Shown piece by piece: positions 20,001 through 64,000 of a stretch of DNA of 64,000 nt (the first letter of the stretch is position 1; every line of letters begins with the position of its first letter). A program made the position numbers and the translations under genes. Below the pieces are notes generated by a model. The model was given only the letters and a program-made list of their open reading frames with translations. It ran no database searches and was not told the DNA's origin. This DNA comes from Azolla caroliniana (lineage: Eukaryota; Plantae; Polypodiophyta): NCBI GenBank assembly GCA_043228905.1, contig JBHGNT010000001.1, forward strand, positions 5,704,001 through 5,768,000. The letters are read 5' to 3'.

Positions 20001-20744
20001 AAAGCTCGCATCTCACTGTGTTAAATCACAAATTGGAGTAAGCCAGTCGGTTGTACTCTGTTCCTATGATTGTAACCGCTTGAGGGGAGCTCCTTGAGCA
20101 ACAACCGACCCAATCGTGCTTCATTCGGTTAAACAACCAAATAGGTCACCGGACGCTATTCACTTGCTTGTTGTAACCACCCGCTGCAGATTGGTCTCCT
20201 GGCAACAACCACTTCGTGCTTTAATCGGTTGATTGACATTCGGGAGGATCAGTTGGATCCGTCCCTCTCATAGCTGCAGTCATCCGAAGTTGAATCGGTC
20301 CAAACAATTGGTCTCGTGTAATCGGTATTCGGCATACAATCGAAAGCTAACCGGGCTCACTCCAACTCGGCAACATTCGGGAAGACCAACTGGTTCTGTC
20401 TCTCAAGTTACCGTTGTCGTGAAGAAAACCGTCCCTTAGCGCAATCGGTGCATAGCACGCGTGAACCGGCTCTTCACGCGTGCGCGCCCTTTAAATGTAT
20501 ATAATAGAGAATTAGGTACAAAGGTATGTCCTAGGTAGTTAGATTCGGTAGGTAGGAAGTTAATGAGGGAAACGGCTTCCTTGTGGAAGCTATAAAAGAG
20601 CGGGAGACGCGGGGAGAAGGGGATCGCGCATTGAGGAGGACGAAGTGCTGTCGGACCGTAACCGAACGCTTCTCCTCTGTTCGTTCCCCATCGCTCTTCT
20701 CTGCAGGGTTTTCAGGAGGCTCGCGCTGCTTCGAGGAACGCAGT

Positions 20745-21395
20745 TGTTGCATTACTACGCGCGTGCGTGGAGAAACGAGGCGGGACCACCGGGGTCTTGA
20801 ACCGAAGAGCAGGTGATAGAAGGGGAAAGAGAAGGAGAGAGAGACCCGATCACGTATGAGCAAAGAAACACAGGGGCACGGCCCGTCAACACAGAAGACA
20901 CGAATGGACACAGAGACAGGGAGACATAAATGTCTGTATATTAACGAATAACAAATACAAAACAGAGCACGCGAGCGGTTACAACCGAACAGGCCGGCGA
21001 ACAGATGCCGATGCCTGTTCGTCTGCGCACGAAAAGGAGAAAAGGGTGGAGGTGCTGCTGGAAGCACACGAGCGTTCCTCGAAGCAGCGCGAGCCTCCCG
21101 AAAACCCTGCAGAGAAGAGTGATAGAGAACGAATCTGAGGAGAAGCGTTCGGTTCCGGTCCGACAGCACTTCGTCCTCCTTAATGCGCGATGCTTTCTCC
21201 CTGCGTCTCCCTCTCCTTTATAGCTTCAAGAAGGGAGCCGTCTCCCTCATTTACTTCCTACCTACCGAATCTAACTACCCGGATATGCCTTTGTACTTAA
21301 TTCCCTATTATATACATTAAGGGCGCGCACACGTGAAGAGATGGTTCACGCGCGCTATGCACCGATTGCGCCAAGGGACGGTTTTCTTCACGATA
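20745..21395 (-). mobile_element. Solo LTR of the element-C family, inserted in reverse inside the 5' LTR of C
   Basis: Reverse complement of the C LTR end to end; 4-bp TSD CAGT (20741-20744) / CCGT (21396-21399); the uninterrupted 3' LTR reads GGAACG-CCGT-GTGCTT. Confidence 0.9.
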
Positions 21396-21741
21396 CCGTG
21401 TGCTTCCGGCAGCACCTCCATCCTATCCCCCTTCGTGCGTAGACGAACAGGCATCGGCATCTGTTCGCCGGCCTGTTCGGTTGTAACCGTTCGCGTGCTC
21501 TGTTGTTTATTTGTCATTCGTTAATATACAAACATTTGTGTCTCTCTGTCTCTGTGTCCATTCGTGTCTTCTGCGTTGACGGGTCGTGCCCCCCCCTGTG
21601 TTTCTTTGCTCATACGTAACCGGGCGTCTCTCTCTTTCTCTTTCCCCTTCTAACACCTGCTCTTCGTTTCAAGACCCCAGTGGTCCCGCCTCGTTTCTCC
21701 ACGCACGCGCGTAGTAACGCGACATCTTTGGTGAACCCGAC

Positions 21742-23909
21742 ATGAAACAGGCGGTAGAGGAGCAGAAGATGAGGGGGTCAGATCTTGCAGAGGCCATGGC
21801 TTCGGCCGTGGACCGGATGGTGAGCGCGCGCGAGGGCACCGGCGCCCTTGACAGGGCTATTGAGGCGATCGTCGATACGATCAGCCGGTTCAGTGGAAAG
21901 GATGCCACGAGTTATTTGGCGTCCTACCGGGTGGAGATGTTGATGAGGGATATTCCGGAAGAGAGGTGTCTTGCCGGATTCCCTCGAGTGGCGACGCCGG
22001 ACATCCATGCGGAGGTGCTCGAGGTCCGGGCGGAGAGCCGAACCTGGGAGGAGTTCGAAGGACGGCTCCTGGAGAAATACGGGCTGGATGACGCGCTTCG
22101 ACTTTCGAAGCGGGGCTTCATGGAGTGGGTGGAGTCCCCCAACAAAGGAAGAAATGCGTCGGTACTCCTCCGGGAGTTTGAGGAACGCTTTGCGCGCCTT
22201 TCGGCGCTCGATCGGACCGTTCTGGACACGAGTCGTGTCCTACTGTTTGTCAAATCGGTTGACGAACGGGATCGGGAGCAAGTGGTCTCCTTACTGGAAA
22301 CCGAAGACGGGCTGACGACGGACTGGGCCGCGGTAAAAAGAGTCTGCGGCCGTTTTGACAAACGGCGGGAGTGGGCTGATATAGGGGCGACCGGGGCGGG
22401 TCCTGTCGCATCAAGGAAGCTCGAACCGATACCGCAGGCGCGAAGGGAAGAGACCCGGGAGTGGCTCGAAACCGGTTCGGCTTCGACCGGCGTGGTCAGA
22501 GGCTCGTCTGAGGGAACAACTTTGGAGGAGTTGACACGGGCGGTAAAGGATCTCCAGATCGCCCAGGCTCGGAGGGAAGGCGGTGAATAGGCTCGTGACC
22601 GATGACCTCCAGCAGGAAATAGGTGCATGTGGTGCGACGAGGTCGGCCACATCCGGAAAGACTGCGGGGACTTTGCGGAGGCTTTGAGAAGCCGGGTAGT
22701 GTACCTGTGGGAAGGTCGGGTGCACGCCAGCGATACCCGGAGGGCCCTTAACCGGAACGATGGGCGAGGAGGAATGAAAAGGCTGATGGAAGAGGCGGCG
22801 GCCCGGCACGTGGAGACCATCCACTACTCGGCGTCAGCCGGTATTCAGGTCGGAGGCAGCGAGGCCTGGAAGGAGAGCCAAGCCGGGTTCTGGCCGACGA
22901 TGCTGGAAGGCCTCGCCGGTGCCCGACTAAGGAAAGACGAGGCGGACCGCGCGGAGAAGCGGGTCCAGGAGGTAACCGGGTGGAGTGACCCGGTTGAAGA
23001 AAAGACGGGTTTCGTCGAAGCAGCTTGCCAGAATTACGAGGCTCTGGTAGAAGACAAACAGGTAGGTAAAACTGGAGGGGCCGGACCCTCACAGAGATAC
23101 GAAACCTGATTCAGGCCGAAACGGAACGAGGCCGGTGAGACCAGTGCCCGGGATAACCACAAGAAGGGCGGATGCCGGTTGGGCACAAAGATCGAAAGGA
23201 CCACGGACCTACGAAAGGTCCTGGAAGAACAAATCCTCGACAGCAAGGTGGAACTGTCGTTGCGGGAGGTGCTCGGAATCGCCAAGAAGGAGTTCCACGA
23301 CTCCATCGTAGACTTGGTGAAGAGGAAGAGGCTGTCGACGGAGACAGAACCGGAAAGGCCGGTGGAGGTGCGGATGACGCACATAGAGGACATGGCGCTG
23401 GAAGACGAGTGGGCGGAGAGCCACTATTCGAGGCCACACTGGGCCCGAGTGACCACGGAAACCCTGGTGAAGATCGGAGATGTTCAGGAACCGGTGGTGG
23501 CGCTAGTGGACCACGGTTCGGAAATAAACCTGATGTCCATGGACTTCTACAAGAAGGGGAAATGGCCGATCAACACCAAGCACATGTGGAAGATATGGGC
23601 GGCGACGTGCACCACCGAGGAACTACACGGGGCCTGCCCAAACGTGCGAGTCAAGATCGGCGACGTCGAGATAGACCAACACTTCTTTGTGCAGGAGACG
23701 TCCTCGCACCCGGTCATGCTGGGAGAACCATACTGGGACCAGCACTTCTTTGTGCAGCGCGGATGGCGACCAAGGTACTGGACAACGGGTCGGCTTACGC
23801 GAGGGTCAAGAGTCAGGACGAGCGTCATTCGGTCCAGTTCCTGACAGTGCGACCGAACCACGAGCGAAACCGCGAGTCCCTCGGTGGCGAGAATTGACAT
23901 GATTTTTAG
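21742..23909 (+). pseudogene. gag-protease of element C (stops and frameshift)
   Basis: RFSGKDATSYL capsid-like region, zinc knuckle CMWCDEVGHIRKDC, aspartic protease ALVDHGSEINLM; ends GAT TTT TAG. Confidence 0.85.
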
Positions 23910-26900
23910 AAAGGGCTGTCAAGGCGTGGGGCCGCGATAGTCCGAACACTCCAGGAAAACCCCACAAATGTACGATAGATGCGAAACCGAAGAAACCTTG
24001 TACCATAAGTAGGAAGTTTTGTTTCTCCGACAACGGAGGATGTACGATAGTCGGCGTCGTTGGCCGAGAAAAGACAAGGGCGGAAGAGCGACTTCGGGCG
24101 TGCGGAGTTCTTGGGCACAACGAGGAAATCAACGGAGCCGTGGAGGCGGTCTCCTTTGACGATACCTTGGGAATACTGCGAGAGGTGGTCGGAGAGGGCC
24201 TTAAAGAGGACCGGATGATACCGGTTTGTTCAGAAGAGATGTACGAAGTCATCGCGGACTTCAGTCGGGGGCTCGAGTCGGATCGGACGGCCCGGGTTAA
24301 CACGAAGTACAAGACTGTGGACCGGAAGGTAAGGCCAGTCGCGGCACCCTTACCGGAGGGCAGCGAGTTGCGAATCAAGGGGGTCGTGTCGGACCCCAGT
24401 TTATGAGATCCGGCCTGCATAGGACACACCTTCACCGACAGAACGCTACGGGAGCTCAAAATCGGTGGGGGCGGGTTCCTACTGCCGGCGGAAGAAGACC
24501 GGTTTCGGAGAATGCTCAGAAGGCACGGAAAAGCCTTCGCATTCTCATCGGGAGAGATCGGGTGCGTGGACCCGACAGTCGTGAAGCCAATGTTGATATT
24601 CACGGTACCGCATGTGCCGTGGAATCTCAAACCAATTCCGGTACCGAGAGCTCACATCCCGGAGCTGATGGAGCTGTTGAAGCAGAAAGTCGATATGGGC
24701 ATCCTCGAACCGTCGAGTGCCCCGTACTCGAACCGGTGGTTTACCGTACCGAAGAAGAACGGGACGTTGCGCTTCATTCAAGACCTGCAACCGGTCAACA
24801 GAGTGACCATTCGGAACGCAGGAATCGGACCAACGATAGATGAGTTCGCGGAGGCCTTCGCCGGAAGGTCGATCTACTTGGTCGGTGATCTGTACTCGGG
24901 GTAAGATCAGTTCCAACTAGCCGTAGAGAGCAGAGACATTACGATGATGCGGACTCCTCTCGGCCTAGTGCGGATGTGTACCCTGCCACAAGGAGGGACG
25001 AACTCGGTGGCCCACATGGTGAATGCGATGAACAAGGTGCTGAGGGATTGTATCCTGGACATCACCATGCCATTCTTGGACGACATCCCGATCAAGGGAT
25101 GTCCGGTGGAGGAAAAGGACGAAACGATCGGACCAGACGGGTGCCGGAAATTTGTGGCGACACACATTGACGACTGCGAGAGGGTGCTGCAGAGGCTAGA
25201 GGACGCGAGGCTCACCTTCTCCGGAGAGAAATCGGCCTTCGGGCAATCAGAGATCATGGTCGTCGGACATCTATGCGGACCGTATGGTCGGAAACCGTCT
25301 CCGGCTAAGGTGGAAGCCATCTCTGCAATGAAGCCCGACTGTAAGTCGGTCACGGAGGTACGGAGGTTCTTGGGAGCATACACGTTCTACCACATATGGA
25401 TCCCGCATTACGCCCACGTTGCCGAGCCGCTATACGGGTTGCTGAAAAAGGGGCGAAAATTCGAGTGGCGAGACGAGCATACGGAGTCGGTTCGAAAGAT
25501 GAAGGAGGCTCTTGCTGGAGCTCCGACACTCCGGAAGGCTGCCTACGAGAAAGGCACTCCCATCTACATAACGGTAGATACAAGTCCGACCGGGATCGAA
25601 TGGGTCGTCAACCAAGAAGATGAGGAAGGCATTCGGGTCCCAATCTGGTTCGGCGCGAAGGTCCTCAACGAGCGACAGCGAGGACACACCCAGGCTAAAA
25701 GCGAACTCTGGGGTATCGTTTCGGCGGTAAAGGCCGATAAAGACTATCTGATCGGGACAGAGGTGATTATCGAGACGGACTGCCTGCTGATTCTCGGCAT
25801 GGTTTCCGGATGCGCAACCCCGGACCTGGCAATGCTCTGGTGGATAGCGTACATCAAGTCCTTGAATCCAGAAATACGACACATTTCCGGGAAAGACAAT
25901 GCCATGGCCGACATGCTTTCGAGGGCGCGATTCGAGGACGAGGGCGGAATGGTTTCAGAGGACGAGGAAGTCGGTGTGGACTTCTTCGAGGCGGCTTACG
26001 TAACAACCGAGGGGGGGAGCACTCCGGCGCTTAACGATTTTAACGAGAGCAAGTACGACGGGGAGTGGCTGCAGATTGGGGGATTCTTAAGGACAATGAC
26101 GCCGGATGCGTCATGGACAAAGGACGAGGCCAACCGGATCCGGAAGAAAGCGTACCAATTCTTTCTCCGGGACGGATACTTGTGGAAGCACCCGAAGAAG
26201 AGAAACGACATCCTACTCCGAGTAGTGGCGATGGAGGAGGAACAGGAGGAGTTGCTGAAGGCCTACCACGACAGCCCCTGGGCTGGACACCGTGGGACGT
26301 GGGCCACGTTCGAGAAACTAAAGGGGAAGTACTGGTGGCCGGGACTATACCGGGACGTGCATCGGTTCGTGACAACTTGTGAGAGTTGTTAGATACACTC
26401 CATAGTCTGACATCGGGACGAGCTTCACCCTACATACCCTCTGGCCATCCACTTCAAATGGATGGTAGATTTGGTGACGATGCCGATGGGCGTAGGGCAG
26501 AAGCGATATCTGGTGCTGGCCCGGGAGGACCTGACGAACCAGGTGGAAGGCCGAGCCCTGCAGAACAAAACGACCGCGACCGTGTGTCGGTTCCTGATCG
26601 AGGACGTGATATGCCGGTACGGGTGCGTTGGGAAGATCGTGGCTGACCGTGGGGAGTTGGATGCTGAAGAGGCCGAGGAGCTGTTCGACCGGTTAGGGGT
26701 CAAGCTCTCGCTCACCACAACGTACAATCCGGAGGCGAACGGGAAGGTGGAGCGCGGACACGAACCGATCGTCAAAGCACTAGTCCGGGCGTGCGGAGGC
26801 CAGGTCGGGAACTGGCCACGACTGTTACCTTATGCCTTGTGGGCGGACCGGACAACGCACAGTTCGGTAACCGGGTTCATGCCGTCGGAGCTCATGTTCG

Positions 26901-27430
26901 GACAGAAGCCGATCATGCCGATGGAACGGACAATCTCCTCTTGGGCGATAGTGGACTGGAGAGGCGAGATGAGCCAGGAAGAATTGCTAGCGGCGCGTAT
27001 ACGGCAGCTCGAGCGGAGGCCAGAGGACGTGGAACGAGCGGCGGAGAGACTTCGGACGGCGAGGATGAGGAACAAAGCCCGGTTAGACCAAACGCACCAG
27101 CTCCGACCAAAGAAAATCGAGGAAGGCGATTGGGTGCTAGTCTACGACATTAGCCTCGACAACCAGCACCGGGCAACACGGAAGTTTGCAAGGCGGTGGT
27201 TCGGGCCTTACGTGGTAACGAGTGCCAACGACAACGGGACGTATCACCTGGCAGAACTCGACGGTGCGAGGATGGTGATACCGGTAGCAGGGAAGCGGAT
27301 CAAAGCGTTCAAGAAGCGCCACGACGGCGAACCGGATCTAAGAGGCCTGGACAACGACGACGAACAGTCCGAAACGGAGGACGAACTAATGGACGAGGAA
27401 CCGGAACCTGGACCGGTTTTCTCCAACTAG
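23904..27430 (+). pseudogene. pol (RT-RNase H-integrase) of element C, in the -1 frame relative to gag-PR, with several in-frame stops
   Basis: RFIQDLQPVN, LPQGGTNS, PFLDDIPIKG (RT); ITVDTS..ELWG..ETDC (RNase H); H-x5-H..CESC, VDLV..ADRGE..VERGH (integrase); WFGPY; no chromodomain. Confidence 0.9.
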
Positions 27431-29645
27431 AACCCAATTTTGGCGCATACCGGTGGATGCGCGGTTAGGTGGGGGCGGATGTCGTGCAGAAAACCGTCCC
27501 TTAGCGCAATCGGTGCATAGCACGCGTGAATAGGCTCTTCACGCGTGTGCGCCCTTTAAATGTATATAATAGAGAATTAGGTACAAAGGTATGTCCTAGG
27601 TAGTTAGATTCGGTAGGTAGGAAGTTAATGAGGGAAATGGCTCCCTTCTGGAAGCTATAAAAGAGAGGGAGACGCGGGGAGAAGGGGATCGCGCATTGAG
27701 GAGGACGAAGTGCTGTCGGACCGTAACCGAACGCTTCTCCTCTGTTCGTTCCCCATCGCTCTTCTCTGCAGGGTTTTCGGGAGGCTCGCGCTGCTTCGAG
27801 GAACGCCGTGTGCTTCCGACAGCACCTCCATCCTATCCCCCTTCGTGCGTAGACGAACAGGCATCGACATCTGTTCGCCGGCCTGTTTGGTTGTAACCGT
27901 TCGCGTGCTCTGTTGTTTATTTGTCATTCGTTAATATACAAACATTTGTGTCTCTCTGTCTCTGTGTCCATTCGTGTCTTCTGCGTTGATTGGCCGTGCC
28001 CCCCCCTGTGTTTCTTTGCTCATACATAACCGGGCGTCTCTCTCTTTCTCTTTCCCCTTCTAACACCTGCTCTTCGGTTCAAGATCTCGGTGGTCCCGCC
28101 TCGTTTCTCCACGCACGCGCGTAGTAACGCGACACTGTAGTCACTCCGAGCAAGTTCAGCAACAAGTATCTGAAACCAAACCGACTCGGGTTCAAAACCG
28201 ACTAGAACGACATCGGGTGAGCCGACCGGCTGCACCCCACTAAGGTTCCTAGTCAACTCCGAACTGAGTCTTACCAACCGAAACCGAAGCAGATGGCATC
28301 AACATCCGGATCATCGGAGATGAGTCTAAGGAGGTTCAATGGTTCGAACTTCAACTTTTGGAAGGAACAAATGCAGGACTATCTCATAGTCAAGGGTCAG
28401 ATAGATCCGATTGAGAATGAAAATCCTCGAGAAGCATACAAGGCAAACGAGTGGCTAAAGCTGAACAGAATCGTCCGCGCCACGATTCGGATGCACTTGT
28501 CGGAGTCAATGTACTTCACAATGCAATTATGCACGACAACGTTTGAACTTTGGAAAACATTGTCGAAAACTATGAAAAGAAGGTTGCCGCAACGAAGATG
28601 TATCTGATCCGGCGCCTCTACAACTTGCGGATGAAAGAATTCGATTCCGTTTAGGCACACCTCAACGAGTACGAAAGCATAAGCTCCCAAATCTCGTCTT
28701 AGGGGACGACAATCGAGGATGAACTCAGAGCAATGACACTCATGGGTAGTCTCCCCTCTTCATGGGAAACTTGCTTACAACTGTGTGCAATGCTTCAACA
28801 GTTGCCGTTAAGTACTCCAAAGTCACAAGCGCAATCCAGACTGAAGCAGCTCGGAGAAAGTCTTTCGCCAAAGACTCGGCAGATGAAGCTTACGTAGTAC
28901 AAGGTTCGACCGACCGATCGAACAACCGGGGAAGAAGTTCTTCCCGACCGCCGAACAATCAGCGAAGCCAGAGCAAGTCCCGGGACAACCCAATCTGCAA
29001 CTATTGCAAGAAACTGGGACACATCAAAGCTGACTACCGGGCACTCAAAGCAAAAACCGACAAAGCTCAGAGAGCGGATCAGAAGAGTAGTTGGCATGAG
29101 GAAGTCAACTACATCGGCTCTTCAGCCGAAATTTTGACGACCAACCCGAATATATGTTCATAGAGAACCTAATCGAATCAGAAGTTCTGCTTACGACTGA
29201 GGAATCGAGCACATGGCTTCTTGACTCGAGCGCATCGTATCATGTGACACCTCACCGATCTCAGTTTCGGCAATACTCGGACCGGCACTCCGACTCAGTT
29301 CAAGTCGGAAACTCCCAACACTGTGCTATAATCGGAATCAGCACCGTAGAGCTCAACCTTCCGGGTGGCTCTACGCTCGTACTACACAACGTTTGACACA
29401 TTCCTGAGCTCTCAAGACCCCTGATCTCAGTCGGACACCTTGACGAAGCCGGCATCCGTGCCGGATTCTCATTAGGAGGGTGGTCACTCCACAAAGGGAA
29501 CCTCCTGCTTGCTTGAGGACCAAAGGTACATTCCTTGTATCCTTTATATGTCACACTCAATGAGGGTGACTTATTTTTGGTAGATATCCCCGTGTCATCG
29601 TTATGGCATTGACGACTTGGACACCTCCGTAAGGCCGGCATAACG

Positions 29646-43082: not shown

Positions 43083-43854
43083 GGACTCGTGGTCTGTAGT
43101 TACCACAAAGCGATTTCCATAAAGATAATGGTGCCATGTTTTAAGCGCATGTATAACTGCAAATAATTCCTTTTCTTGAACGGTATAAGACAACACCTAT
43201 AGCATAATCAAGTTTCTTACTCTCGAATGTTATTGGTTTACCATCTTGATATAAGACAACACCTATAGCATAATCGCTTGCATCGGTTTCAACCTCAAAA
43301 GGTTTTGAAGGATCGGGTAAAAGAAGTGAAGGAGCCTTGCATACCAGGTCCTTGAGTTCCTTAAAAGCGAGGTCTAGTGTAGCATTCCACACAATAGGTT
43401 TTGTAGACTTACGCGTTTGACCTTTTAGAAGATCAGTAAACGACGTCGTCAATTGGGAGTAATTACGAAGGGATTTTCGCAAAAACCCGATAAAACCAAG
43501 GAATGATCGAACTTCTCGAATGTTCCGAAGAGTGGGCCAAAGCTTGATTTTCTCGACGCGAGAAGGATCAATTTCAACTCCTCGTTCGGTTATGAGATGT
43601 CCAAGATAAGTAATTGATTTCTTGAAGAACTCACATTTTGAGATCTTTGCATAAAACTGTTTGTCACGCAATGTTTGTAAAACTAAGAGGACATGTTTAG
43701 CATGTTCTTGTAATGTACGACTATAAACTAAAATATCATCCAAGAAAATAATGACAAATTTGCCAAGTTGTTCGAGATCTTTGCGTAAAACTGTTTGTCA
43801 TGCAATGTTTGTAAAACTAAGCGGACATGTTTAGCATGTTCTTGTAATGTACGG

Positions 43855-44579
43855 TGTCGCGTTGTTACGCGCGTGCGTGTAGAAGGGGCGGGACCACCGG
43901 GGTCTCGGACTAGGGAGTAGAGGAGAAAGAATAGGACATGATATGGAGGCTTAGCTCAAGAGGAGAAGAGGAAAGAATAAGAGCACGACATAGAAGGAGA
44001 GATCGGCGGAGGCAAGATGTTCAACAAGTTATATTAAAACGTAGTGAATGATTACAAAATGGTGGCCGCATAGGCCGCACCAAACGACTACTCGAAACCC
44101 TAACCGACGAAGATGAAGATGAAGATAAAGAAACCCTAATCCTAACCCTAACGCTCGACCTATGTGGTATACCTCGCACACTCAAAATAGGCAACCCCCA
44201 CAATGGTGCCTTCCCTCTCCTTTTATAGCACAAGGAGAGAAGACCGTTTACAAAAGTGAGACTAAAATATCCCCTTTTATTCAAAGGGGATATTTGCCTT
44301 GATTTGGGGGAGGGTGAGATTGATGGCCCCCTTAACTCCCACCTCCTCACAAACAACTAGGTACCCATGTACCTCATAGTACCTCTCTCTCTCTCTCGCG
44401 TGGATGTGCGCACAAGACCACATCACCTTTATACCTTAGGGGTCTTATGGGCATTTCTAGCACCATACACTTTACCCTTATTACTATTACAAATACATTA
44501 TGTACGTGTGCAACGTTGCACATCGCTCTTTGGCTCTCGTTGCTCGGGTTTCCGCTTGTGGACAAAAATCTTCACGACA
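43855..44579 (-). mobile_element. Solo LTR of the tRNA-Trp-primed gypsy family (element N), inserted in the RT of K
   Basis: Family termini TGTCGTGAAGA...AACGCGACA on the minus strand; perfect 4-bp TSD ACGG at 43851-43854 and 44580-44583. Confidence 0.9.
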
Positions 44580-45169
44580 ACGGCTATAAAGTAAAATATC
44601 ATCCAAGAAAATAATGACAAATTTGCCAAGTTGTTCTTGGAAAATGTCATTCATTTCTTGTTGAAATGTAGCCAGAGCATTGGTCAAACCAAAAGGCATA
44701 ACCAAAAACTCATAATGGCCATATCGCGTACGAAATGCCGTTTTAGGAACATCGTCCTCACTTATACGAATTTGATGGTAGCCAGTACGGAGATCAAGTT
44801 TCGTAAAATACCGAGCTCCCTGGAGACGGTCAATTAGATTCTCAGCCCGGGGCAATGGATACGAATTCTTGATTGTCACTTTATTCAAGCGTTGGTAATT
44901 AATATACATACGCCATGTGCCCTCTTTCTTTTTAACCAAGAGAACTGGTGCACCCCATGGAGATTTACTATAAAGTATATAACCCATTCGTAAATAGTCC
45001 TTGAGTTGCTTAGATACCTCATCCTCTTCGGATCAACTTAAGCGATAAGGAGGTATACTTATTGGTGCAACGCCAGGTACAATATCTATACGATGGTCTA
45101 TATTTCGTTTAGGAGGTAAGTCATCTGGTAGTTCACTCGGAAAAACATCACAAAAATCATTTAAGATTT

Positions 45170-49875: not shown

Positions 49876-52800
49876 TCAGTCACCCCGTTTGCTCGACGGA
49901 TTCCGCCCCTCGCGTACCACTTGTGTTCTATCTCCGACTCGATCCTCTCTTCGTCTCGAACACCTCGTGCCGATTCCCTCTGTTCCGCGCTCACCTTTCG
50001 TAGGCTCTTTCCGTGTGCCCTTGTTGTCTCCCGAACATGCGCTCATTCTTCGGTCCCTCGGTGACCTCATTACGCGCTCCTCGCTTCTCCCTCGCTCGCC
50101 GTGCTCTCTCGTCGTAGAGCATACCATCATCCCGACCACCATGTCAGTGTCCTTCGCGACTCCCGTTACCGCCTCATCCCGTCTCTCGTCCTCTTGGCCC
50201 GCTTGGCCTCGCATGCCTTCCGAGATGCCGCGCTTCCGTAGCCCGTTGCTCTCCACGCACCTCCTCCAGTTCTCAAGACATAGCCTTCCATGCTCGCCGA
50301 TCATCCTCATGCTTGTCGTTCGACCCTTACGCGGCCACATCGCACGTCTCGCACTCCGCTCCGCTCTGTGTACCCTTTCGAAAAGGTACGTTGCTTTCCC
50401 GACATCCGTGTCGGTGCTCTCGTCTTCGGTGTCCTCCACAACCTCCGATGTTGCCGCTTCGCCCCGAGGTACACCCTCTTGGTCCGCCTCGCATGTCCTC
50501 CAAATGCGCTCCGGATCTCTCCGGTCGCACTCCAGTTTCCGCCCTTTGCGTGCCGCTCCTTTGGTTTTATCGTCTCCGCATGTCGAACACCTCGGTGTGT
50601 CAACTCTTCCCGCTCCGCTCTTGCCTTCCGTAGGCTCTTCCCATGCGTCGATGTTGTCCCCCGAATATGCGCTCATTCTTTGGCCCTTAGGCGGCCCCAC
50701 TCCGCATTCCTTCCCTCTCCTTTGCCCGTCGTGCTCTCTCACCGTAGAGCGTACCGTCATCCCAACCTCCGTGTCGGTGTCCCTCGAGGCTCTCGTTATC
50801 GCCTCGCCTCGACTTGCACCCTCTTGGCTCGCTTGGCCTTGTATGCCCTCCGGGAAGCCGCCACGTTTTCTCTTCCCGGTGTGTACCCCGTTGTTCTCCG
50901 CGCATCCCCTCCATTTTCCCAGACACAATCCTTCGTTCACGCCGATCACGCCCGTCTCGTTCTGTCGATCTTGGCGTCTCGTCGCACCGCCCGTCGTCCC
51001 GCGCTTGCCTCTCGAAGGCTTTCTCCGACCTTCATCGTTGGTCACTCGTTGTGGATCTTCTGGGTGCATGCTTGCTTCTTGGCCCTTCGCCGGCCGTAGT
51101 ACACGCTCTGTTCTACGCCGTAATGCATGCTTCGTGTTACACGCTTCCCTCGTTGTAGTCCCGACCTCCGCGTCGGCCTCTTCGTATTTCGTTGCCGTAG
51201 CCCCTTTCGACTCCGGCCTTCCGTCTTGGCCGTGCTCATCCGCCTTCACGCACCGGGTACCCGTTCCGGTAGCCTCGTCCGTTCCGGTCTCCGACTCCTC
51301 GCCGCCTTCCGCCGTCTCTTTGGTCTTACGTCGATCCGCAACCGCCAAAGTCTCAAGAATAGGTGAGGAGGGTCCCTCTTGCTCTTGGCCTCCCACCGAG
51401 TCGTACTCCTTGTGCATGCTTGGCCTCCTTCTCGTGCTCACCAGCTCCCACCGGGTGTTGTGGCCCATTCGCCCGGATCGGTCTCGGCCGATCGAGTCCC
51501 GGTTTGGTCGGCTCCCTTCCGTAATCGTAACCGGCCGGTACATGTTTGTCCGAACAAATCCAGCCTTGCCGGCTCTTCTTCGGTTCGGGCCCGGTTGACC
51601 GGACCCCGCTCCAATCTTCTTCCGCGTCATCTTCCGGTCGTGTCGGATTATCGACCGGTTCATTTTCCGGTCGGTTCGGTTCCCGACTCTCTCCTCTTTG
51701 CCACTCCCGACCTCTCCGTCGGTCCTCTCGTATATGCCCGTTCCGGGCCTCGCATCCTCATCTTCGTACGTGTTCGCTCCGGGCCACGCCTCCTCACGGC
51801 CACCGCCCTTCTCTCCGGTCTTATGTTGGCATTCGAGCGCAACCGCCGTAATCTCCGGTCTCGGTGTCGAGAGGTCTTGCCTCCGTCCGCTATGACCTTC
51901 CTCGTCATCGTTTCGATCGTCCGCTTTGCCACCGCCACCTTCCGTCTCTCTGGTCTCACGTGGGCTCTCGGGGCCGACCGCCGAAGTCTCTAGAATAGGT
52001 GTTGGAAAAGTCCCGGTACCGTTACTCGTCGATGCCATGTTCGTAGCCACCTTCGTTTGGATGCCGTGGTCCGTGGCTATCTCTTTCTCGTTCTCCTTGC
52101 CGTTGTCTTGGTTGCCCGCCTTGCCGCCGCCACCGCCCGTCGCTCTAGGTCTCACGCCGGCACTCGGGCCGACCGCCGGAGCCTCTAGGACCGGTGTGGG
52201 TAAGGACCCAGCACCGCCGCTTGTCTCCTCCCCACTCGACGTTTCGGGCCGCCATGTCCCGAATCCGTAGTTACCGGCCTCCATGGCCGTCCCTTCACCG
52301 CAAGGCAAGAGGGTCGCTTGCTCCGCACCCTCTCCCATGTTGCCGTCTTCTACGTCTAGGGAGGCTTCTTCGTCCGCATCCTCTGATCGCCTCCGCCCCG
52401 ACTCCATAACAAGCCCTTCTTCGGCTCCGATTTTCGCCTTCACAAGCTCACATGCCTCTCGTATTAGTGCGTCTAGGTCGAGCTCCTCCGAACTGTTTTG
52501 CGTTGAGCTCTCTTTCGACAGTAGTGCGTACTCACTCGCCGCTCTCTCTTCTCTACCGCTTGTGGGCCACGTTGTTGCCGACCGCTCCCCATTGGGTTTC
52601 CGGCATACCCACTCCGGTTTCGAGTATCCGTACGCTTCCAATAGGGCTACCTCCAAGGATACCCACGACTCGTGAGCTTCTCGTAGCTCCTTGACCTCCT
52701 TGTGCACCGATGCGGCCGCCACTCGAGGAAAATACTCTAGCCGCATCTCCTCGTCCACGCCCCCTTTCGCCATCTCGGCCTTGTAGGCTCCCAAAAATTT

Positions 52801-52950
52801 TGGGACCTCATTCCCATTGAACCGGCCGACTCGATCGACCACCCTTTCGACAGCTTGTTGAGCCGCATCTCGCTTCGCCATCTTCCGTCCGGCTTCCATC
52901 ACAATTTTTGCCATCATCTCCTCGAAGTCGAAGTCTTCTTCCATCTCCAT
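49876..52950 (-). CDS. 1024-aa ORF of element E: Gag N-terminal domain (~110 aa) fused to a long G/E/R/T-rich internally repetitive region of unknown function
   Basis: ATG 15 nt after the PBS; VDRVGRFNGNEVPKFLGAYKAEM...ESWVSLEVALLEAYG aligns with Gag of C and H; no stop for 3075 nt. Confidence 0.65.
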   Translation of the reverse strand: MEMEEDFDFEEMMAKIVMEAGRKMAKRDAAQQAVERVVDRVGRFNGNEVPKFLGAYKAEMAKGGVDEEMRLEYFPRVAAASVHKEVKELREAHESWVSLEVALLEAYGYSKPEWVCRKPNGERSATTWPTSGREERAASEYALLSKESSTQNSSEELDLDALIREACELVKAKIGAEEGLVMESGRRRSEDADEEASLDVEDGNMGEGAEQATLLPCGEGTAMEAGNYGFGTWRPETSSGEETSGGAGSLPTPVLEAPAVGPSAGVRPRATGGGGGKAGNQDNGKENEKEIATDHGIQTKVATNMASTSNGTGTFPTPILETSAVGPESPRETRETEGGGGKADDRNDDEEGHSGRRQDLSTPRPEITAVALECQHKTGEKGGGREEAWPGANTYEDEDARPGTGIYERTDGEVGSGKEERVGNRTDRKMNRSIIRHDRKMTRKKIGAGSGQPGPNRRRAGKAGFVRTNMYRPVTITEGSRPNRDSIGRDRSGRMGHNTRWELVSTRRRPSMHKEYDSVGGQEQEGPSSPILETLAVADRRKTKETAEGGEESETGTDEATGTGTRCVKADEHGQDGRPESKGATATKYEEADAEVGTTTREACNTKHALRRRTERVLRPAKGQEASMHPEDPQRVTNDEGRRKPSRGKRGTTGGATRRQDRQNETGVIGVNEGLCLGKWRGCAENNGVHTGKRKRGGFPEGIQGQASQEGASRGEAITRASRDTDTEVGMTVRSTVREHDGQRRGKECGVGPPKGQRMSAYSGDNIDAWEEPTEGKSGAGRVDTPRCSTCGDDKTKGAARKGRKLECDRRDPERIWRTCEADQEGVPRGEAATSEVVEDTEDESTDTDVGKATYLFERVHRAERSARRAMWPRKGRTTSMRMIGEHGRLCLENWRRCVESNGLRKRGISEGMRGQAGQEDERRDEAVTGVAKDTDMVVGMMVCSTTREHGERGRSEERVMRSPRDRRMSACSGDNKGTRKEPTKGERGTEGIGTRCSRRREDRVGDRTQVVREGRNPSSKRGD

Positions 52951-52965
52951 GCTCCCTTGCCGCAC

Positions 52966-52983
52966 TTCACGTCGGGTTCACCA
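52966..52983 (-). promoter_or_regulatory. Primer-binding site, tRNA-Trp (element E)
   Basis: TGGTGAACCCGACGTGAA, an 18-nt complement of the recalled tRNA-Trp 3' end including CCA. Confidence 0.8.
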
Positions 52984-55442: not shown

Positions 55443-56201
55443 TGTTGCAGTGTATTCCACACACTACGTGAAAACCATAAAATAATATATCCGATTTTAG
55501 ATACATATAAATAAATAAATAATATATCAAAATATTTATCACGTGCATAAGGTAAGATTCAAACCCTATACCTCCATGTAGCCAAACCTCAACTTTACCA
55601 TTATGCTACCTTATCTTTAGTGTTCTACAAATAGATTTAATAACTATAAGTGCTTTATTTGTGCTACCTTTATTAAAAGGTAAATCATGCATTTTTAGAG
55701 TGCGTGAATATTTTATTGAAAAACGCAAGCAACTAAAAAGTGACTCATGCACATCTAGCGTGCATGAGCACTATATTTAGCAAATAAAAGCAAGGATTAG
55801 AAAAGCATCACATGCACATTTAGTGTGCATGAACATATTAGAAAAAACCATGTAGCTATGCTTAGTCTCTCCCATCACTATATAAGGATGGGGAGCACAT
55901 TGTAGTTTTTGTTGATTATTTTTCTATAATGATCAATCAATCTAAAATATTCGTGGGATTCACGAATTTGCTAAAATAATTCTCTCTTACTACCTAAATA
56001 TTGACTAAATATACCAAACTCGTGGGATTCACAAGATTCTTATCTTATAACTCTTTATACCTATTCTTTACTAGCCTTATTTGTATTTTTCTTCCTCCTA
56101 GTCCAAAACCTCGGCGGTTCCAACCCAACTCACGCAACGATCCGGAGCCGAAACGCACGACACAGTTGGTGAACCCGACGTGAGAACCGGGTGGCAAGGA
56201 G

Positions 56202-58244
56202 ATGGAAAATCAACCGGAGGCTAGCAACATGATGATGATGTTCGAGCGCATGCTACAAGAACAACGCACGATGTCGAAGATAGCGACATCAGTGGAGCGG
56301 CTCGTGCAACGAAACAGGCAATTCAACGGGAAAGACGTGTCGCGGTATCTTCGGGACTACAAGGCGGAGATGCTACGGTGCGGAATATTGGAAGGACTGC
56401 AAGTGACGTCCTTCTACCGGGTGGCGACCGACGGGCTTCAAGCAAGCATCCATAGGCTACGACAACAAAATCCGACATGGGAGGCGTTTGAAGAAGAGCT
56501 AAAGAGGACGTTCGCCATTGAGGATTCCTCCAAGGCGACGCGAAGGGGATTCGAAGATTGGGTGGAGACGCCGGACAAGGGATTGAAGGTCGTTGACGTG
56601 TTTTCGGCATTTGAAAGCCGGTTCGGGAGGTTGTCAGCGAGAGATCAAGCTATCCTCGTACCAGACAAGGTGATCATGTTCTTGCGAGCCGTGGACGTTC
56701 GGGACTGGAAAGATCTCGGAGTGCTCTTGGAAGACACGACCACGGAGAGTGGCCTCACCGAAACATGGGAAAGCGTGCGGGATATCGTCGTGCGATACAC
56801 GAAGAGGGGGCAATGGCTTGCCAACGAGGAAAAGAGGGTTTCGGAACCAATTCCGAAACCGAGAACCGGATTGGAAGACCATCAACCGAGGGCTCGGGAG
56901 ACTACAACCGAGAAGGGGATTGATGGACCTACGGTGGAGCAACTATTGAAGGAGATGGAGAATCTGAAGATCGCGATGGTGAAGAAGTCGGATGACCGCC
57001 CCACAAGCTCCAAGTATACGGACCGACGGTGCATATGGTGCGATAGCGCCGAACACGATCGGAGGGATTGCGACGAGCATAAGGAGGCACTACGGCGGGA
57101 TCTCATCTACTACGAGGGAAACTAGATTCATTCGATGGACTCTCGGAAGCCACTCCGACCGAACTTCCGGAAAGGCGGCATGAAGAAGGTGCTCGAGGAG
57201 GAATTGGCGGCAAGAAGCAACTATGCGACAACTACGGGAATATGTGTCGGGGAGTCATCGAGAGCAAAGACGTCTTTTTGGCCGGAAGTTCTAGAAAACA
57301 CCGAGAAAACCGACTCCAACGAGATCCGAAGCACCGCGGAAGGCGTCCGGGAAGCTACGGGATGGGAGTGCCCTATCGACAAGAATAGCGTATACGCCCT
57401 GTGTCAATTGCATAAGGTGTATGTGGACGAGAAACGACGACGCACGGAGGATGCGGGCGGGCCATCGAAGCTACCGGAAAGCTGGAACTCCGGAGGTAAG
57501 GGAAAAGAAAAGGCGACTCCGGCATTCAAGCTCGCCTCGGACATAGAACAACAAACCGACTTGAAAAGAGTGTTCGAGGAAAGGATCTTGGATAGCCGGG
57601 TAGATTTCTCGCTTCGGGAGCTACTCGGAATAGCAAAGAAGGAGTTCCACGATCTTCTCGTGGATCTCGTGAAGCGAAAAAGACAAAGTACGGAGGAAAA
57701 TGCTCCAAGGGTGAATGCGAACACCGTTTTAATGAACGACACTGAAGTGGAGGACGAAATTCCGAACTCCCACTATACAAGGCCACATTGGGCACACGCG
57801 ACTAAGGAGACTCCGGTCCGAATCGGCAACATCAAAGAACCCGTGCTAGCATTGATTGATCACGGATCGGAGATCAACTTGATGTCCAAGGAGTTCTACC
57901 GGAAGGGGAAGTGGCCTATTAACACCAATCATGGATGGAAGATTCGGGCGGCCACCAAAGCAACGAAAGATCTATTTGCGGCTTGTCCGGATGTGACGGT
58001 GAAGATCGGGGATGTCGAGATCGACCAAAATTTCTTCGTGCAAGATGAGGTTTCACATTCCGTCATCCTCGGCCAACCCTTTATCACGGCATCACGGATG
58101 GAGACGAAGGTGCTCGATAGCGGTGCGGCTTTTGCGCGAATTCAGAGCCAAAACGGTGGGAAATCCGTCCAATTCCTAACGGTGCCGGCAAATCACGAAA
58201 GGAACAAGAGGGAACTCTTGTCCCAAGTGAGAATGGATTTTTAA
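56202..58244 (+). pseudogene. gag-protease of element H (one in-frame TAG at 57123-57125)
   Basis: QFNGKDVSRYL, CIWCDSAEHDRRDC, ALIDHGSEINLM, VILGQPF; ends ATG GAT TTT TAA. Confidence 0.87.
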
Positions 58245-58298
58245 AGTGGACTGTTGCGGAGTGGGGAAGTGATAGTCCGAGAAGCCCTGATACCCCAC
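58235..58298 (+). promoter_or_regulatory. Predicted -1 programmed ribosomal frameshift signal (G_GAU_UUU, 6-nt spacer, H-type pseudoknot)
   Basis: The -1 frame is open from the site into RT; stems GGACTGTTGC/GTGATAGTCC and GTGGGG/CCCCAC; equivalent structure at 23900-23965. Confidence 0.75.
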
Positions 58299-59750
58299 AC
58301 AGGAAGAAAACTCTCGGAGCAAAACATGTACGAATCGGTCCGGATGGGGCATCTACGTACACGACCGTAACCGGAGGATTGAAGAAAGGATACCAACAAG
58401 TGGAGGATAAGTTGCGGTCGGCATCAATAATAAAAGAAGATGAGGAAATCATGGGGATAGTCGAAGAAGTGTTCTATGGGAGCACGCTACAACGACTTGA
58501 AGAGCTTGCGGAAGATAAAAGCCAAGGGATCCGGGTAGTCCCGGTGGAATCGGTCGAGATGTACGAGATCATTGCGAAAATGGAGCCGGATACGCTCCGC
58601 AAAGAAGAAGCAATGGTAAATACGAAATACAAGACCGTGGAGAAGAAGGTGAAACCGGCCGCGGGACCACTACCCGCCGATAGCGAACAAAAGAGGAAAG
58701 AAGTCTCGGGAGATCCGACACTTCGGAAGTCCGTGGATATCGGACATGCCTTCACGGATGAGACCCGGAAGAAACTTCGGATCGGTGGAGGTGGGTTCCT
58801 ATTACAAAAAGAAGAAGAACGGTTTCGCGAGATGTTGGAGCAACACGGCAAAGCGTTTGCATTTACATCAAGGGAGATAGGGTGCGTCGATTCGAGAATA
58901 GTGGAGCCGATGGTGATCTTCACGATTGACCATGTACCGTGGAACTTGAAGCCGATTCCGGTGCCACGAGCGCATATTCCGAAAGTCATTGACTTGCTCA
59001 AGGAGAAGGCGGCGATGGGGATTCTAGAGCCATCAACTACTCCGTACTCAAATCGATGGTTTACGGTTCCGAAGAAGAATGGGTCACTCCGATTTATCCA
59101 AGACTTGCAACCGGTGAATAAGGTCACGATCCGGAACTCGGGAGTTGGTCCGATAGTGGACGAATTTGTGGAAGCTTTTGCCGGTCGTGCGATATACTCC
59201 ATCGGAGACCTATACTCAGGGTATGACCAATTCCAACTAGCCGTGGAGAGCCGAGACATCACAACCATGCGAACACCGTTAGGATTAGTCTGAATGTGCA
59301 CACTACCACAAGGAGCGACAAACTCGGTTGCTCATATGATGAACGCGATGAACAAGGTGCTTCGAGACTGCATTCCGGAGATAACGATGCCGTTCCTCGA
59401 TGACATTCCGATGAAAGGATGCGCGGTAGAAGAAAAAGATGAGACTATGGATGATCGGGGATGCCGAAAGTTCGTGGTCGACCATACTCATGATTGCGAG
59501 AAAGTGTTGCGAAAGCTAGAAGATGTGCACCTAACACTTTCCGGGGAGAAATCGGCATTTGGGCAAGAAGAAATATTGGTGGTCGGACATCTATGTGGGC
59601 CCTACGGCCGAAGACTGTCACCAACAAAGATCGATGCGATTCAAGCTATGGAGGAAATATGCGAGTCAACATCCGAAGTCCGAAGGTTTCTCGGTGCATG
59701 TGCATTCTATCACATATGGATTCCGCACTATGCACATATAGCGGACCCAC
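58239..59750 (+). pseudogene. Reverse transcriptase region of element H
   Basis: RFIQDLQPVN, DLYSGYDQ, LPQGATNS, PFLDDIPMKG; one in-frame TGA at 59291-59293; cut by element I. Confidence 0.88.
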
Positions 59751-62700
59751 TGTCGTGCAGATTTTCGTCCATAGGCAGAAACCGGGGTGGAAGGGGCAAG
59801 TCGGTGGTGTGCAACATGTGCACATGTATACTAGGATATGGTGTATAGAGAGAGAAGGGGAAATTTTTGTCCCACATTGTAAGGTCCCTCCCTCCTTGGG
59901 CTATAAAAGGAAGGAAGGGGTCACTTATGAAGGGGTTGCCTATTTTGCGTATGAGAGGTATACCACTTAGCCTAGAGTTCTTACCGTTTTAGGGTTAGGG
60001 TTTCCTTATTCATCTTCGGTTAGGGTTTTCTCATAGTCGTTGGGTGCGGCCCATGTGGCCACCATTGTTGTAACCATTCGTTGTTTTAATATAACTTGTT
60101 GAACATCTTGCCTCCGCCGATCTCTCCTTCTATGTCGTGGTCTTATTCTTTCCTCTTCTCCTCTTGAGCTAAGCCTCCATATCATGTCCTATTCTTTCTC
60201 CTCCACTCCCTAGTCCGAGACCCCGGTGGTCCCGACCCTTCTACACGTACGCGCGTAACAACGCGACATATTTGGTGAACCCGACGTGAAGGGCGGCAAG
60301 GGAGCATGGAGATGGAAGAAGACTTGGACTTCGAGGAGATGATGGCAAAAATCGTGATGGAAGCCGGACGGAAAATGGCGAAGCGAGATGCGGCTCAACA
60401 AGCCATCGAAAGGGTGGTCGATCGAGTCGGCCGATTCAATGGGTACGATGTCCCGAGGTTCTTTTAAGCGTATGAGGCCGAGATGGCGAAAGGGGGCGTG
60501 GACGAGGAGATGCGGCTAGAGTATTTTCCTCGACTGGCGGCCGCATCGGTGCACAAGGAGGTCAAGGAGCTACGAGAAGCTCACGAGTCGTGGGTGTCCT
60601 TGGAGGTAGCCCTATTGGAAGCGTGCGGATACGCGAAATCGGAGTGGGTATGCCGGCGACCCGATGGGGAGTGGTCGGCAACAACGTGGCCCGCGAGCGG
60701 CAGAGAAGAGAGAGCGGCGAGTGAGTACGCACTACCGCCGGAAGAGAGCTCAACGCAAAACGGTTCGGAGGAGCTCGACCTAGAAGCGCTAATACGAGAG
60801 GCATGCGAGCTTGTGAAGGCGAAAATCAGAGCCGAAGAAGGGCTTACACACACCGGTCCTAGAGACTCTGGCATCCGGCCCGAGAGCCGGTGTGAGACCT
60901 AGAGTGACGGACGGTGGCGGCGGCAATGCGGGCAACCGAGACGACGGCATGGGAGAGATGGTGGCAAGCGTAATCGAGGTTTGCGGAATCGGAGATGGGG
61001 TAGCCGCGGACAACGACGACCGGACGGAAGCGGCTACTGACACAACAAGTGGCGGTGCCGGGTCCTTACCCACACCGGTCCTAGAGGCTCCGGCGGCCGG
61101 CCCGAGTGCCGGCATGAGACCTAGAGCGACGGGCGGTGGCGGCGGCAAGGCGGCCTACCATGGCGACGAAGAGAACGAGGAAAAGATAGCCACGGACCAC
61201 GGCGTCCGAACGAAGGTGGCTACGAACATGGCATCGGCGAGTAATGGTATCGGGACTTTTCCCACACCTATTCAAGAGACTTCGGCAGTCGGCCCCGAGA
61301 GCCCACGTGAGACCGGAGAGAAGGGCGGTGGCCGTGAGGAGGTGTGGCCCGGAGCGAACACGTACGAAGATGAGGATGCGAGGCCCGGAACGGGAATATA
61401 CGAGAGGACCGACGGAGAGGTCGGGAGCGGCAAAGAGGAGAGAGTCAGGAACCGACCCGACCGGAAGATGGACCGGTCGATAATCCGACATGACCGGAAG
61501 ACGACGCGGAAGAACATTGGAGCGGGGTCTGGTCAACCGGGCCCGAACCGAAGAAGAGCTGGCAAGGTCGGATTTGTTCGGACAAACATCTACCGGCCGG
61601 TTACGATTACGGAAGGGAGCCGACCTAACCGGAACTCGATCGTCCGAGACCGATCCGGGCGAAGGCAAAGTTGACACGGTTGGAGGTCGAGGCGAACGGG
61701 CCACAACACCCGGTGGGAGCCGGTGAGCGCGAGAAGGATGCTAACCGGGCACGGTGATTACGGCTTGGCAGAAGACCGAGAGCGAGAGGAGCCCTCCACA
61801 TCTATCCTTGAGACTTCGGCGGTTGCTGATCAACATAAGACCGGAGACACGACGGGTGGCGGCGAGGAGTCGGAGACCGGAACTGACGAGGCCACTAGAA
61901 CGGGTACCCGGTGCGTGAAGACGGATGAGCACGGCCAAGACGGCAAGCCGGAGTCGAAAGGGGCTATAGCAAGAAAGGACGAAGAGACCGACGCGGAGGT
62001 CGGGTCTACGACGGATGAGGTGCGTAATACGAAGTATGCACTACGGCGTAAAACGGAGCAGGCACTACGGCCAGCGAAGGGCCAAGAAGTAAGCATGCAC
62101 CCGGAAGAGCGGCAACGAGTGACCGACAACGATGGACCTGTCGAGCCTTTGAGAGACAAGCACGCGGCGAGAGATGAAGCCGTAAGGTGCCGAGATCGGC
62201 GGATGGGTGGCGAGAGTGAAGGATGGTGCGCGGAGAACAACGGGGTACACACCGGGAAGAGAAAACGCAGCGGCTTCCCGGAGGACATACAAGGCCAAGC
62301 GGGCCAAGAGGGCGCAAGCCGAGGCGAGGCGGTAATGAGAGCCTCGAGGGACACCGACACGGAGGTCGGGAGGACGGTACGCTCTACGGTGAGAGAGCAC
62401 GACGGGCAAAGGAGAGGCAAGGAACGCGGAATGGGGTCGCCTAAGGGCCAAAGAATGAGCGCATATTCGGGGGACAACATCGGCGCACGAGAAGAGCCCA
62501 TGGAAGGCAAGCGCGGAGCAGGAAGAGTCGACACGCCGAGGTGTTCGGCATGCGGAGACGATAAAACCAAAGGAGGAACATACGCGGCACGAAAAGGGCG
62601 GAATCCGGAGTACGATCGGAGAGTTCAGGAGCGCACCCGGAGGACATACGAGCCTTTGCGAGGAATGCGCGCGGCGAGAGATGGAGCGGTGAGGTGCCGG

Positions 62701-63610
62701 TATCGGCGGATGATCGACGAGCGTGAAAGGCTATGTCTTGAGAACCGGAGGAGGTGCGTGGAGAGCAACGGGCTACGCGCCGGGAAGAGGAAGCACGACT
62801 TCCCGGAAGGCATGCGAGGCCAAGCGGGCCAAGAGGACGAGAGTCAGGATGAAGCGGTAACGGGAGTCGCGAAGGACATTGACATGGTGGTCGGGATGAC
62901 GGTACGCTCTACGGCAAGAGAGCACGACGAGCAAGGGAGAAGCAAGGAGCGCGTAATGGGGTCACGTAAGGACCGAAGAACGAGCACGCATTTGATGGAC
63001 GACAACGACGCACGGAAAGTGCCTACGGAAGCCGAGTGCAGAACGAAGGGAGTCGGTACGAGGTGTTCGGGGCGAGGAGAAGGTCGAGCCGGAGGTGGAA
63101 CACACGCGATACGCGAGGAGCGGCACCCGACGAGCAATCGAAGTAATCGGGGGTCTAACCGGAGGACATGCGCGGTGAGCGAAGGAAGGGAGACAGGATC
63201 GGCAACGGTGTTCGGGATGGCCAGTCGAAGAAGAAGGTGCGTGCGCTGGACGTGGTGGATCGGATGGAGCTGGCGGGTCGGGGCCGGTAAGGAGCTGGCA
63301 AGACGGATCGGCTCCGGCAAGGGACCGGCAAGAAGGTTGGGTGCTGGTAAGGCGAAAGACCCGGTTGATCACCGTGGCCGAAATCTCTCACCCTTTTCCC
63401 TTCTTGGCACATACCGGTGGATGTGCAGTTTGGTGGGGGTGGATGTCGTGAAGATTTTCGTCCATAGGCGGAAACCGGGGTGGAAGGGGCAAGTCGGTGG
63501 TGTGCAACATGTGCACATGTATACTAGGATATGGTGTATAGAGAGAGAAGGGGAAATTTTTGTCCCAGTTTGTAAGGTCCCTCCCTCCTTGGGCTATAAA
63601 AGGAAGGGGA
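59751..63610 (+). mobile_element. Non-autonomous element I (sister of E): 5' LTR 59751-60268, PBS 60273-60290, disrupted Gag-N/repeat ORF from 60306, 3' LTR from 63444 truncated at ~63610
   Basis: LTR and interior colinear with E; stop at ~60465 and frameshifts; a deletion joins the partial 3' LTR to the pre-integrase region of H. Confidence 0.88.
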
Positions 63611-64000
63611 AGAAGTTTCCGAAGACTACTTTGCGTCGGAGCACATATGCCGAGTGAACGTAATCCGAGAATTCCGGGAAGAAGAATACGAGGGAGAAAG
63701 CTTGATGATCGGAAAGATGTTACAAGAGGCCAAGGACTCAACAAACGATAAAGGAAGAAGAGCTGAGATCCGAAGGAAGAAGAGGCAAGTCCAAAAGTTC
63801 TTCTTGGAAAACGGATTAATATGGAGGGCGCCGAAAAGACCGGATGGTATACCACTTCGAGTAGTCGGGACAAAATAGCAACGAAACTGGATAATGTCTG
63901 AGTTTCACGAATCCAATTGGGCTGGACACCGAGGAACATGGGCAACATTTGTGAAGATCAAGCAAAAATATTGGTGGAAGAAAATGTACAAAGATGTCGC

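Follow-up and report, generated by a model that had tools for sequence, protein, structure and literature searches.

The junction between the Gag-protease (Gag-PR) and Pol frames of a Ty3/gypsy element from Azolla caroliniana carries a signal conserved across a Phygy-like lineage which, judging from comparative sequence evidence, is very likely a programmed -1 ribosomal frameshift, and which in one subclade has probably given way to a -2 slip. The element, here called H, lies in a 64,000-nt stretch of contig JBHGNT010000001.1 (the window, whose numbering is used throughout). We propose that most ribosomes would terminate after Gag-PR, whilst a minority would pause at a predicted pseudoknot 6 nt 3' of the heptamer G_GAU_UUU, slip back one base on it and continue into a Gag-PR-RT-RNaseH-integrase product; the slip would thereby keep Gag-PR in excess of Pol. 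What is demonstrated is the layout, how the two frames relate, that heptamer and spacer are conserved, and that both stems covary in aggregate; from these we infer the fold in vivo, the slip and how often it happens, and the surplus of Gag-PR. The features of H are as follows.

56167..56184, + strand: PBS of element H, TGGTGAACCCGACGTGA; also present in many other loci, L062 and L072 among them
56202..58244, + strand: Gag-PR ORF, C-terminus ...RMDF-stop, with a DUF4100 match
57810..58190, + strand: protease domain of modelled retropepsin fold (limits approximate), D-H-G at 57858-57866
58121..59750, + strand: Pol, set at -1 with respect to the Gag frame; a linker of about 120 codons, then RT
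58235..58241, + strand: putative slippery heptamer G_GAU_UUU (GGATTTT), in phase with Gag-PR; identical in 30 of 38 junction types, near variants in the others
58242..58247, + strand: Gag-PR stop TAA and 6-nt spacer TAAAGT; 6 nt in 36 of 38 types
58248..58257, + strand: predicted pseudoknot stem 1, 5' strand, GGACTGTTGC (alignment, covariation)
58261..58266, + strand: predicted pseudoknot stem 2, 5' strand, GTGGGG (alignment, shuffles, covariation)
58269..58278, + strand: predicted pseudoknot stem 1, 3' strand, GTGATAGTCC (alignment, covariation)
58293..58298, + strand: predicted pseudoknot stem 2, 3' strand, CCCCAC (alignment, shuffles, covariation)
59751..63607, + strand: nested non-autonomous element inside Pol of H (repeat D16); the RNase H part of H is absent at its far side
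63603..64000, + strand: Pol of H resumed, up to the integrase zinc-binding region, with one stop (tblastn and translation)

All of the strings named in the original prediction lie where it had placed them, base for base; as it held, the heptamer is in phase and the -1 frame is open into RT (58121 to 59293). The RT motifs are NTKYKT at 58619 and FLDD at 59393. A point absent from that prediction is that the window copy is dead: Gag-PR has one premature stop (57123-57125), RT has another (59291-59293), a second element is inserted in Pol, and RNase H is gone. The intact 679-aa protein P0001 is 96% identical to Gag-PR of H. We take the PBS to be of the tRNA-Trp type; no tRNA gene to match against it was found within the 64-kb window. 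Gag is covered to a depth of 5-17 by sense poly(A) reads of three runs (window 56100-57700), and coverage falls to near zero just 5' of the protease. These reads, mostly 85-95% alike and indel-bearing, could come from a Gag-only transcript or from a single decayed copy that is expressed.

The domain before the junction is, on its predicted model (pLDDT 78), a retropepsin by fold: the top Foldseek matches are XMRV protease and the Ddi1 RVP domain (E 1e-6), and the Pfam match to Asp_protease_2 falls under the cutoff. Its triad reads D-H-G, not D-S/T-G, as do 170 of 190 motif matches among the homologous proteins collected. The hydroxyl residue of the triad is normally required at the dimer interface, and D-H-G on a retropepsin fold may thus represent an unusual catalytic geometry.

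A second, divergent and decayed relative of H, element B, retains both LTRs within the window:

20415..28134, + strand: element B, 7.7 kb (7720 bp), flanked by CCGT/CTGT
23900..23965, + strand: junction of B, with U_GAU_UUU (first heptamer base decayed), TAG and both predicted stems retained

B and H share the Ty3/gypsy order Gag-PR-RT-RNaseH-IN between LTRs, with a PBS. Pfam finds only RT, RT_RNaseH and integrase in B, where integrase runs straight into the 3' LTR with no env. The PBS, presumably of tRNA-Trp type, is near-invariant across loci, and the best named protein matches to Gag-PR come from Physcomitrium patens, with further named homologues in Riccia and Adiantum. Phygy, as tabulated in PMC6317226 supplement 5, has a tRNA-Trp PBS, a 4-bp NCGN target duplication, a length of 7.7-10 kb and no extra domain. 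H fits as a dead copy of a Phygy-like lineage in its presumed PBS type, in the CCGT/CTGT flanks of B (a candidate target duplication at this one element, with one CpG-type mismatch), in the size of B and in the lack of both aRH and chromodomain; the likeness is one of tabulated traits and named protein matches. The same supplement gives the ORF organisation of Phygy as 'ND' and calls the lineage species-specific, whereas here the layout resolves to GAG-PROT overlapping RT-RH-INT with a putative slip site and knot, and the lineage reaches liverwort and fern proteins. On the sequences compared, the family is widespread in mosses and other seedless plants and the candidate junction signal is lineage-wide.

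Several other elements share the window. A non-autonomous family (49876-52977 on the - strand, 59751-63607 on the + strand, and a PBS also at 17061) combines the PBS of H and a Gag-like N-terminus with a long low-complexity ORF in place of PR-Pol; this ORF has 1033 aa and no Pfam match, the LTRs are identical at 496 of 505 positions, and one copy sits within RT of H. A Ty1/copia element (30139-34242, - strand) is near-intact, its LTRs being 99% identical, with one in-frame stop within integrase. Fragments with a second gypsy RT type (FLDDILVYS), presumably chromovirus-like, lie at 40986-45089 (- strand) and 47955-48994 (+ strand), mutually inverted.

The relation between the two frames was established on a DNA set of 83 sequences: the best 80 of 187 confirmed loci, one viral locus and the two window elements. 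Loci were retrieved by alignment of the protease region, with search patterns that excluded the junction; the 80 loci come mostly from one assembly series and are probably collapsed multi-copy contigs. After removal of four sequences without a protease end and 17 without Pol in view, 62 remained, with Pol in the -1 frame in 59, in +1/-2 in three (one of them decayed) and in frame with Gag-PR in none. In 57 of the 59 the open -1 frame extends through a recognised heptamer, the others being L065 and the decayed element B. Amongst the 27 intact loci (Gag-PR of at least 650 aa and Pol of at least 1000 aa), 26 are -1 and one is -2, and none has PR and RT in one frame, the arrangement in young copies that the original prediction had named as contrary to it. 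Scans of viral contigs gave one weak locus without a protease end, and otherwise no loci and no pattern matches.

For the junction itself, seven of 79 sequences without an in-phase heptamer (all short broken ORFs) and one cut by a contig end were set aside, leaving 71 usable junctions that fall into 38 types at 90%. The heptamer is G_GAU_UUU in 30 types, G_GAU_UUC in two, G_GGU_UUU in two, G_GUU_UUU in two, G_GUU_UUC in one and U_GAU_UUU in one, against a codon background in which GAT accounts for 241 of 404 Asp codons, TTT for 91 of 198 Phe codons and G for 30% of third positions. It always lies inside the stretch where Gag-PR and Pol are both open, and since this overlap is just 13 nt in three of the 38 types (and at most 19 nt in ten), the crossing point is pinned to the heptamer. 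Protein records tell the same story: DF-stop is the C-terminus of 68 of 120 homologous proteins, and many further homologues have DF, GF or NF at most six residues from the end. Among DF-ending proteins (93 of 266), not one of the 93 has before it a residue whose codon is unable to end in G, against a background of 25%. The junction thus has the elements of a canonical -1 site, namely an in-phase heptamer of X_XXY_YYZ type within the overlap and a predicted structure 6 nt downstream (the canonical range being 5-9 nt); G_GA heptamers are a listed exception to XXX in the passages on slip sites of PMC5009743, which also bear out their use by dianthoviruses and umbraviruses, as originally claimed.

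Two variations on this arrangement were seen. In L057, L058, L063, L071, L074 and proteins of a DFxxxPL set, which includes Physcomitrium-type and Adiantum proteins, the Gag stop lies five codons past the heptamer, within stem 1. L048, L050 and L051 each have a pair of in-phase G_GAU_UUC heptamers separated by 12 nt, and of these the second alone stands 6 nt from the knot.

Taken by itself, the nested fold of H is unremarkable: the stem-1 hairpin alone has an MFE of -16.9 kcal/mol (z -0.87), and 34 of 200 shuffles do equally well. The two-stem H-type fold, on the other hand, scores above every one of 1000 dinucleotide shuffles in a helix-stacking search built for this analysis, whose limits were set around that very architecture. 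Across the lineage, 36 of the 38 types have a predicted pseudoknot better than 95% or more of its shuffles, L052 and L060 failing, and L059 and L046 passing with a different fold. Rfam gave no match to the H junction and a PDB sequence search came back blank.

The stronger support is comparative. A MAFFT alignment of the junctions, nearly gap-free and not fitted to the structure, shows two-sided change in 13 of the 16 proposed pairs; 83.7% of cells pair, against 77.0% when shuffled and 40-43% with partners slid, and RNAalifold recovers seven stem-1 pairs unaided. Under a tree-aware null, in which the 3' columns were re-evolved on the protein tree in 500 replicates, two-sided changes number 13 against 2.4 in stem 1 and 10 against 1.8 in stem 2, values reached in none of the 500 replicates for either stem. 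For stem 2, neither percent paired (69/500) nor breaks (238/500) beat this null, because its register slides between families. Covariation is present in aggregate, whilst in an R-scape-like test of 37 sequences none of the column pairs reaches significance alone (best E 0.3-1.5). Fourfold-degenerate sites of the Pol frame agree at 65% within the knot against 29% in RT (the pairs are not independent), suggesting that the constraint acts on the RNA. From these comparisons we consider stem 1 well supported as a predicted helix, and stem 2 supported in aggregate.

How else could Pol be reached? In Ogre elements, splicing takes place between GAG-PROT and RT (in the part of PMC6317226 concerned), and an intron could likewise join Gag-PR to Pol here. 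In the -2 clade the slip site itself holds a possible donor, CAG|GT, the string CAG|GTTTT occurring in both L062 and L072; Physcomitrium gene models, moreover, link KDFG to varied downstream points. Yet no GT is conserved 5' of the stop across the 38 types (best 6/38), and the junction stretch is open in the Pol frame, keeps a frame-preserving length and evolves under purifying selection. Of the in-frame AG sites in the -2 clade, those common to both families are AAG or GAG in an A-rich purine context; its CAG sites are unshared. The gene models (P0005, P0052, P0095 and P0158) conflict over the acceptor, joining KDFG to differing points, and their introns are probably artefacts predicted across the frameshift. 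Poly(A) reads from the three runs map on Gag-like sequence up to about 57,700, with none spanning the H junction. We regard an intron as very improbable.

Slightly less probable still is that Pol uses a start codon of its own, by reinitiation past the Gag-PR stop or from a subgenomic RNA, with the fold serving packaging or dimerisation. The linkers do hold Met codons, and both -2 families have an in-frame Met shortly 5' of the site. However, no linker Met is fixed, the commonest offset accounting for only 15 of 33 and the Mets of L062 and L072 being non-homologous, and this explanation leaves unaccounted for an invariant in-phase heptamer, a fixed spacer and 120 codons open back to the heptamer. 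A -1 shift at G_GAU_UUU before an H-type pseudoknot, with Gag-PR first and Pol after, as originally predicted, is strongly supported by the cross-family comparison.

Two families depart from the -1 frame together. In L062 and L072, Gag-PR ends in Q-V-F-x-stop, the site reads AG_GUU_UUU, and the spacer is 5 nt, the only such cases among the 38 types. In their -1 frame a stop follows immediately or no more than seven codons on; the Pol N-terminus, which has its homologue in the -1 families, lies in the -2 (=+1) frame, where 1181 and 1106 codons are open, and a strong predicted pseudoknot of 10-11 bp plus 7-8 bp begins 5 nt downstream. On a tree of 37 of the 38 types (L070 excluded) they form one clade with 100% bootstrap, nested among -1 elements, so the -2 case comprises two families of one origin. 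Between them Pol evolves with a dN/dS of 0.077 (981 codons, dS 1.2), the same as Gag-PR at 0.075, with 0.17 for the linker, indicating that Pol was expressed long after the split. Nor is the arrangement a one-contig error: the C-terminus is common to six of the 15 members listed of the 35-member P0019 cluster, and in the independent run X1, 67 contigs show no indel at 5% or more, three knot variants there keeping G-U pairs or falling in a loop (the other DNA run is possibly the source of the L062 locus). Homologue searches gave no third -2 family: all that they turned up, the P0019 cluster and P0149, matches L062 and L072. The -2 junction was also sought by pattern in prokaryotic genomes, with no hit, and two poly(A) runs mapped no reads to L062. 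Outside this clade, L065 has G_GUU_UUC with a 6-nt spacer and Pol in -1. The Riccia sorocarpa protein P0099 ends in ...RRRVFPDSLL, with VF six residues before the end, and is possibly a further GUU-type site.

On this comparative evidence, the same knot probably drives a -2 slip in L062 and L072, the lineage having moved, in our favoured though by no means secure reading, from -1 to -2 through GAU to GUU and the loss of one spacer base with the pseudoknot kept. AG_GUU_UUU is the -2/-1 site of PRRSV (PMC7618472), after which the relevant sections of PMC7618472 and PMC6675879 describe no RNA structure; according to the part of PMC3458567 concerned, the spacer at which -2 slips are most frequent in engineered constructs is 1-2 nt shorter than the one for -1 slips. 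There is about one chance in four that Pol is instead reached by a +1 slip, or that the families are non-autonomous and borrow their Pol. Frame alone cannot separate +1 from -2, a point made in the relevant passage of PMC5009743, and UUU_U in L072 would permit +1 re-pairing; UUU_G in L062, however, would be poor for it. What the two families share is AG_GUU_UUU with a knot 5 nt on, L065 stays -1 with its 6-nt spacer, and a dN/dS of 0.077 speaks against a dead Pol. The smaller remainder falls to splicing at CAG|GT or reinitiation in these families. A -2 slip driven by the knot would agree with the arterivirus type in having RG_GUU_UUU and a product in the -2 frame, and depart from it in having a pseudoknot in place of a C-rich protein-binding motif 10 nt on with no RNA structure; L062 and L072 would thus work like the arterivirus type yet stand outside it.

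The means by which plant retrotransposons fix their Gag:Pol ratio are only partly understood, and the junction offers a precise, testable -1 signal common to dozens of families; as these include a Physcomitrium-type one, it could be assayed in a model moss. By the recoding passages of PMC5009743, animal elements commonly have gag and pol in a -1 relation and fungal ones also show it, the plant cases there being only +1-frame ones from a 2003 survey of gag-pol recoding. The part of PMC5580714 concerned gives a single ORF, expressed without recoding, as the layout of most plant elements, and the passages concerned of a 2025 review (PMC12786077) name no plant example. Phage Mu, arteriviruses and Trichomonas vaginalis virus 1 are the natural -2 cases in the passages on such slips of PMC5009743, with no retroelement among them; a -2 case is predicted in ASXL2 (PMC5644247, in the passage concerned). 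The passages of PMC12440569 on Troyka hold no link to the H lineage. In the Creative Commons literature, we found no account of this signal in Phygy, nor of any retroelement with a -2 slip. Signals that pair a -1 heptamer with an H-type knot are already known, and the most novel part is the probable natural switch from -1 to -2. If true, an RNA structure would here drive a natural -2 frameshift that yields a reverse transcriptase essential to the element, and the mRNA-tension model, so far based on engineered spacers, would gain a test from evolution. GAU with 6 nt, GUU with 6 nt and GUU with 5 nt, all with one knot, would form a natural matched set for a direct test of what determines slip size.

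Amongst plant elements, it is the mechanism and not the position of the break that is unusual in the H lineage. In Ogre and Retand, too, the break falls between protease and RT, with an intron-bearing spacer or a single stop codon where the H lineage has overlapping frames (PMC6317226 supplement 5). The break after PR is in fact the prevailing one in these two, which the original statement that most plant gypsy elements have a single ORF or break before PR had missed. Tcn1 and Selgy of non-seed plants do have overlapping frames, as in the H lineage, whereas their break precedes PR, and the table of the same supplement gives neither direction nor mechanism. The interpretation first offered is partly supported: its alpharetrovirus-like strategy holds as an analogy only, and its independent origin is not supported, -1 gag-pol frames occurring in animal and fungal elements as well (PMC5009743). 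No env is present in element B, and the homologues are plant retrotransposon proteins.

In Rous sarcoma virus, PR lies within Gag upstream of the slip and the primer is tRNA-Trp. The passages on this virus in PMC5009743 describe a -1 slip into Pol with a pseudoknot stimulator, as proposed for H; it belongs, however, to the Retroviridae, with env, another slip site and a three-stem knot, and the likeness of signal is one of analogy. Priming by tRNA-Trp is also listed for TatI (PMC6317226 supplement 5). Closer in the site itself are the -1 signals of dianthoviruses and umbraviruses, including G_GAU_UUU of PEMV, which share with H the heptamer, plant ribosomes and a stop close behind; there the stimulator is a bulged stem-loop with long-range pairing, in contrast to the predicted local H-type pseudoknot of H (PMC5009743, passages on plant viruses). 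For L062 and L072 the nearest counterpart is the arterivirus nsp2TF -2/-1 signal, as described in the relevant sections of PMC7618472 and PMC6675879, with an identical AG_GUU_UUU site. That system is protein-driven, having a C-rich motif 10 nt on but lacking RNA structure, whereas the two retrotransposon families have a predicted pseudoknot 5 nt on; and unlike nsp2TF, the product that their putative -2 slip would yield is an essential polymerase.
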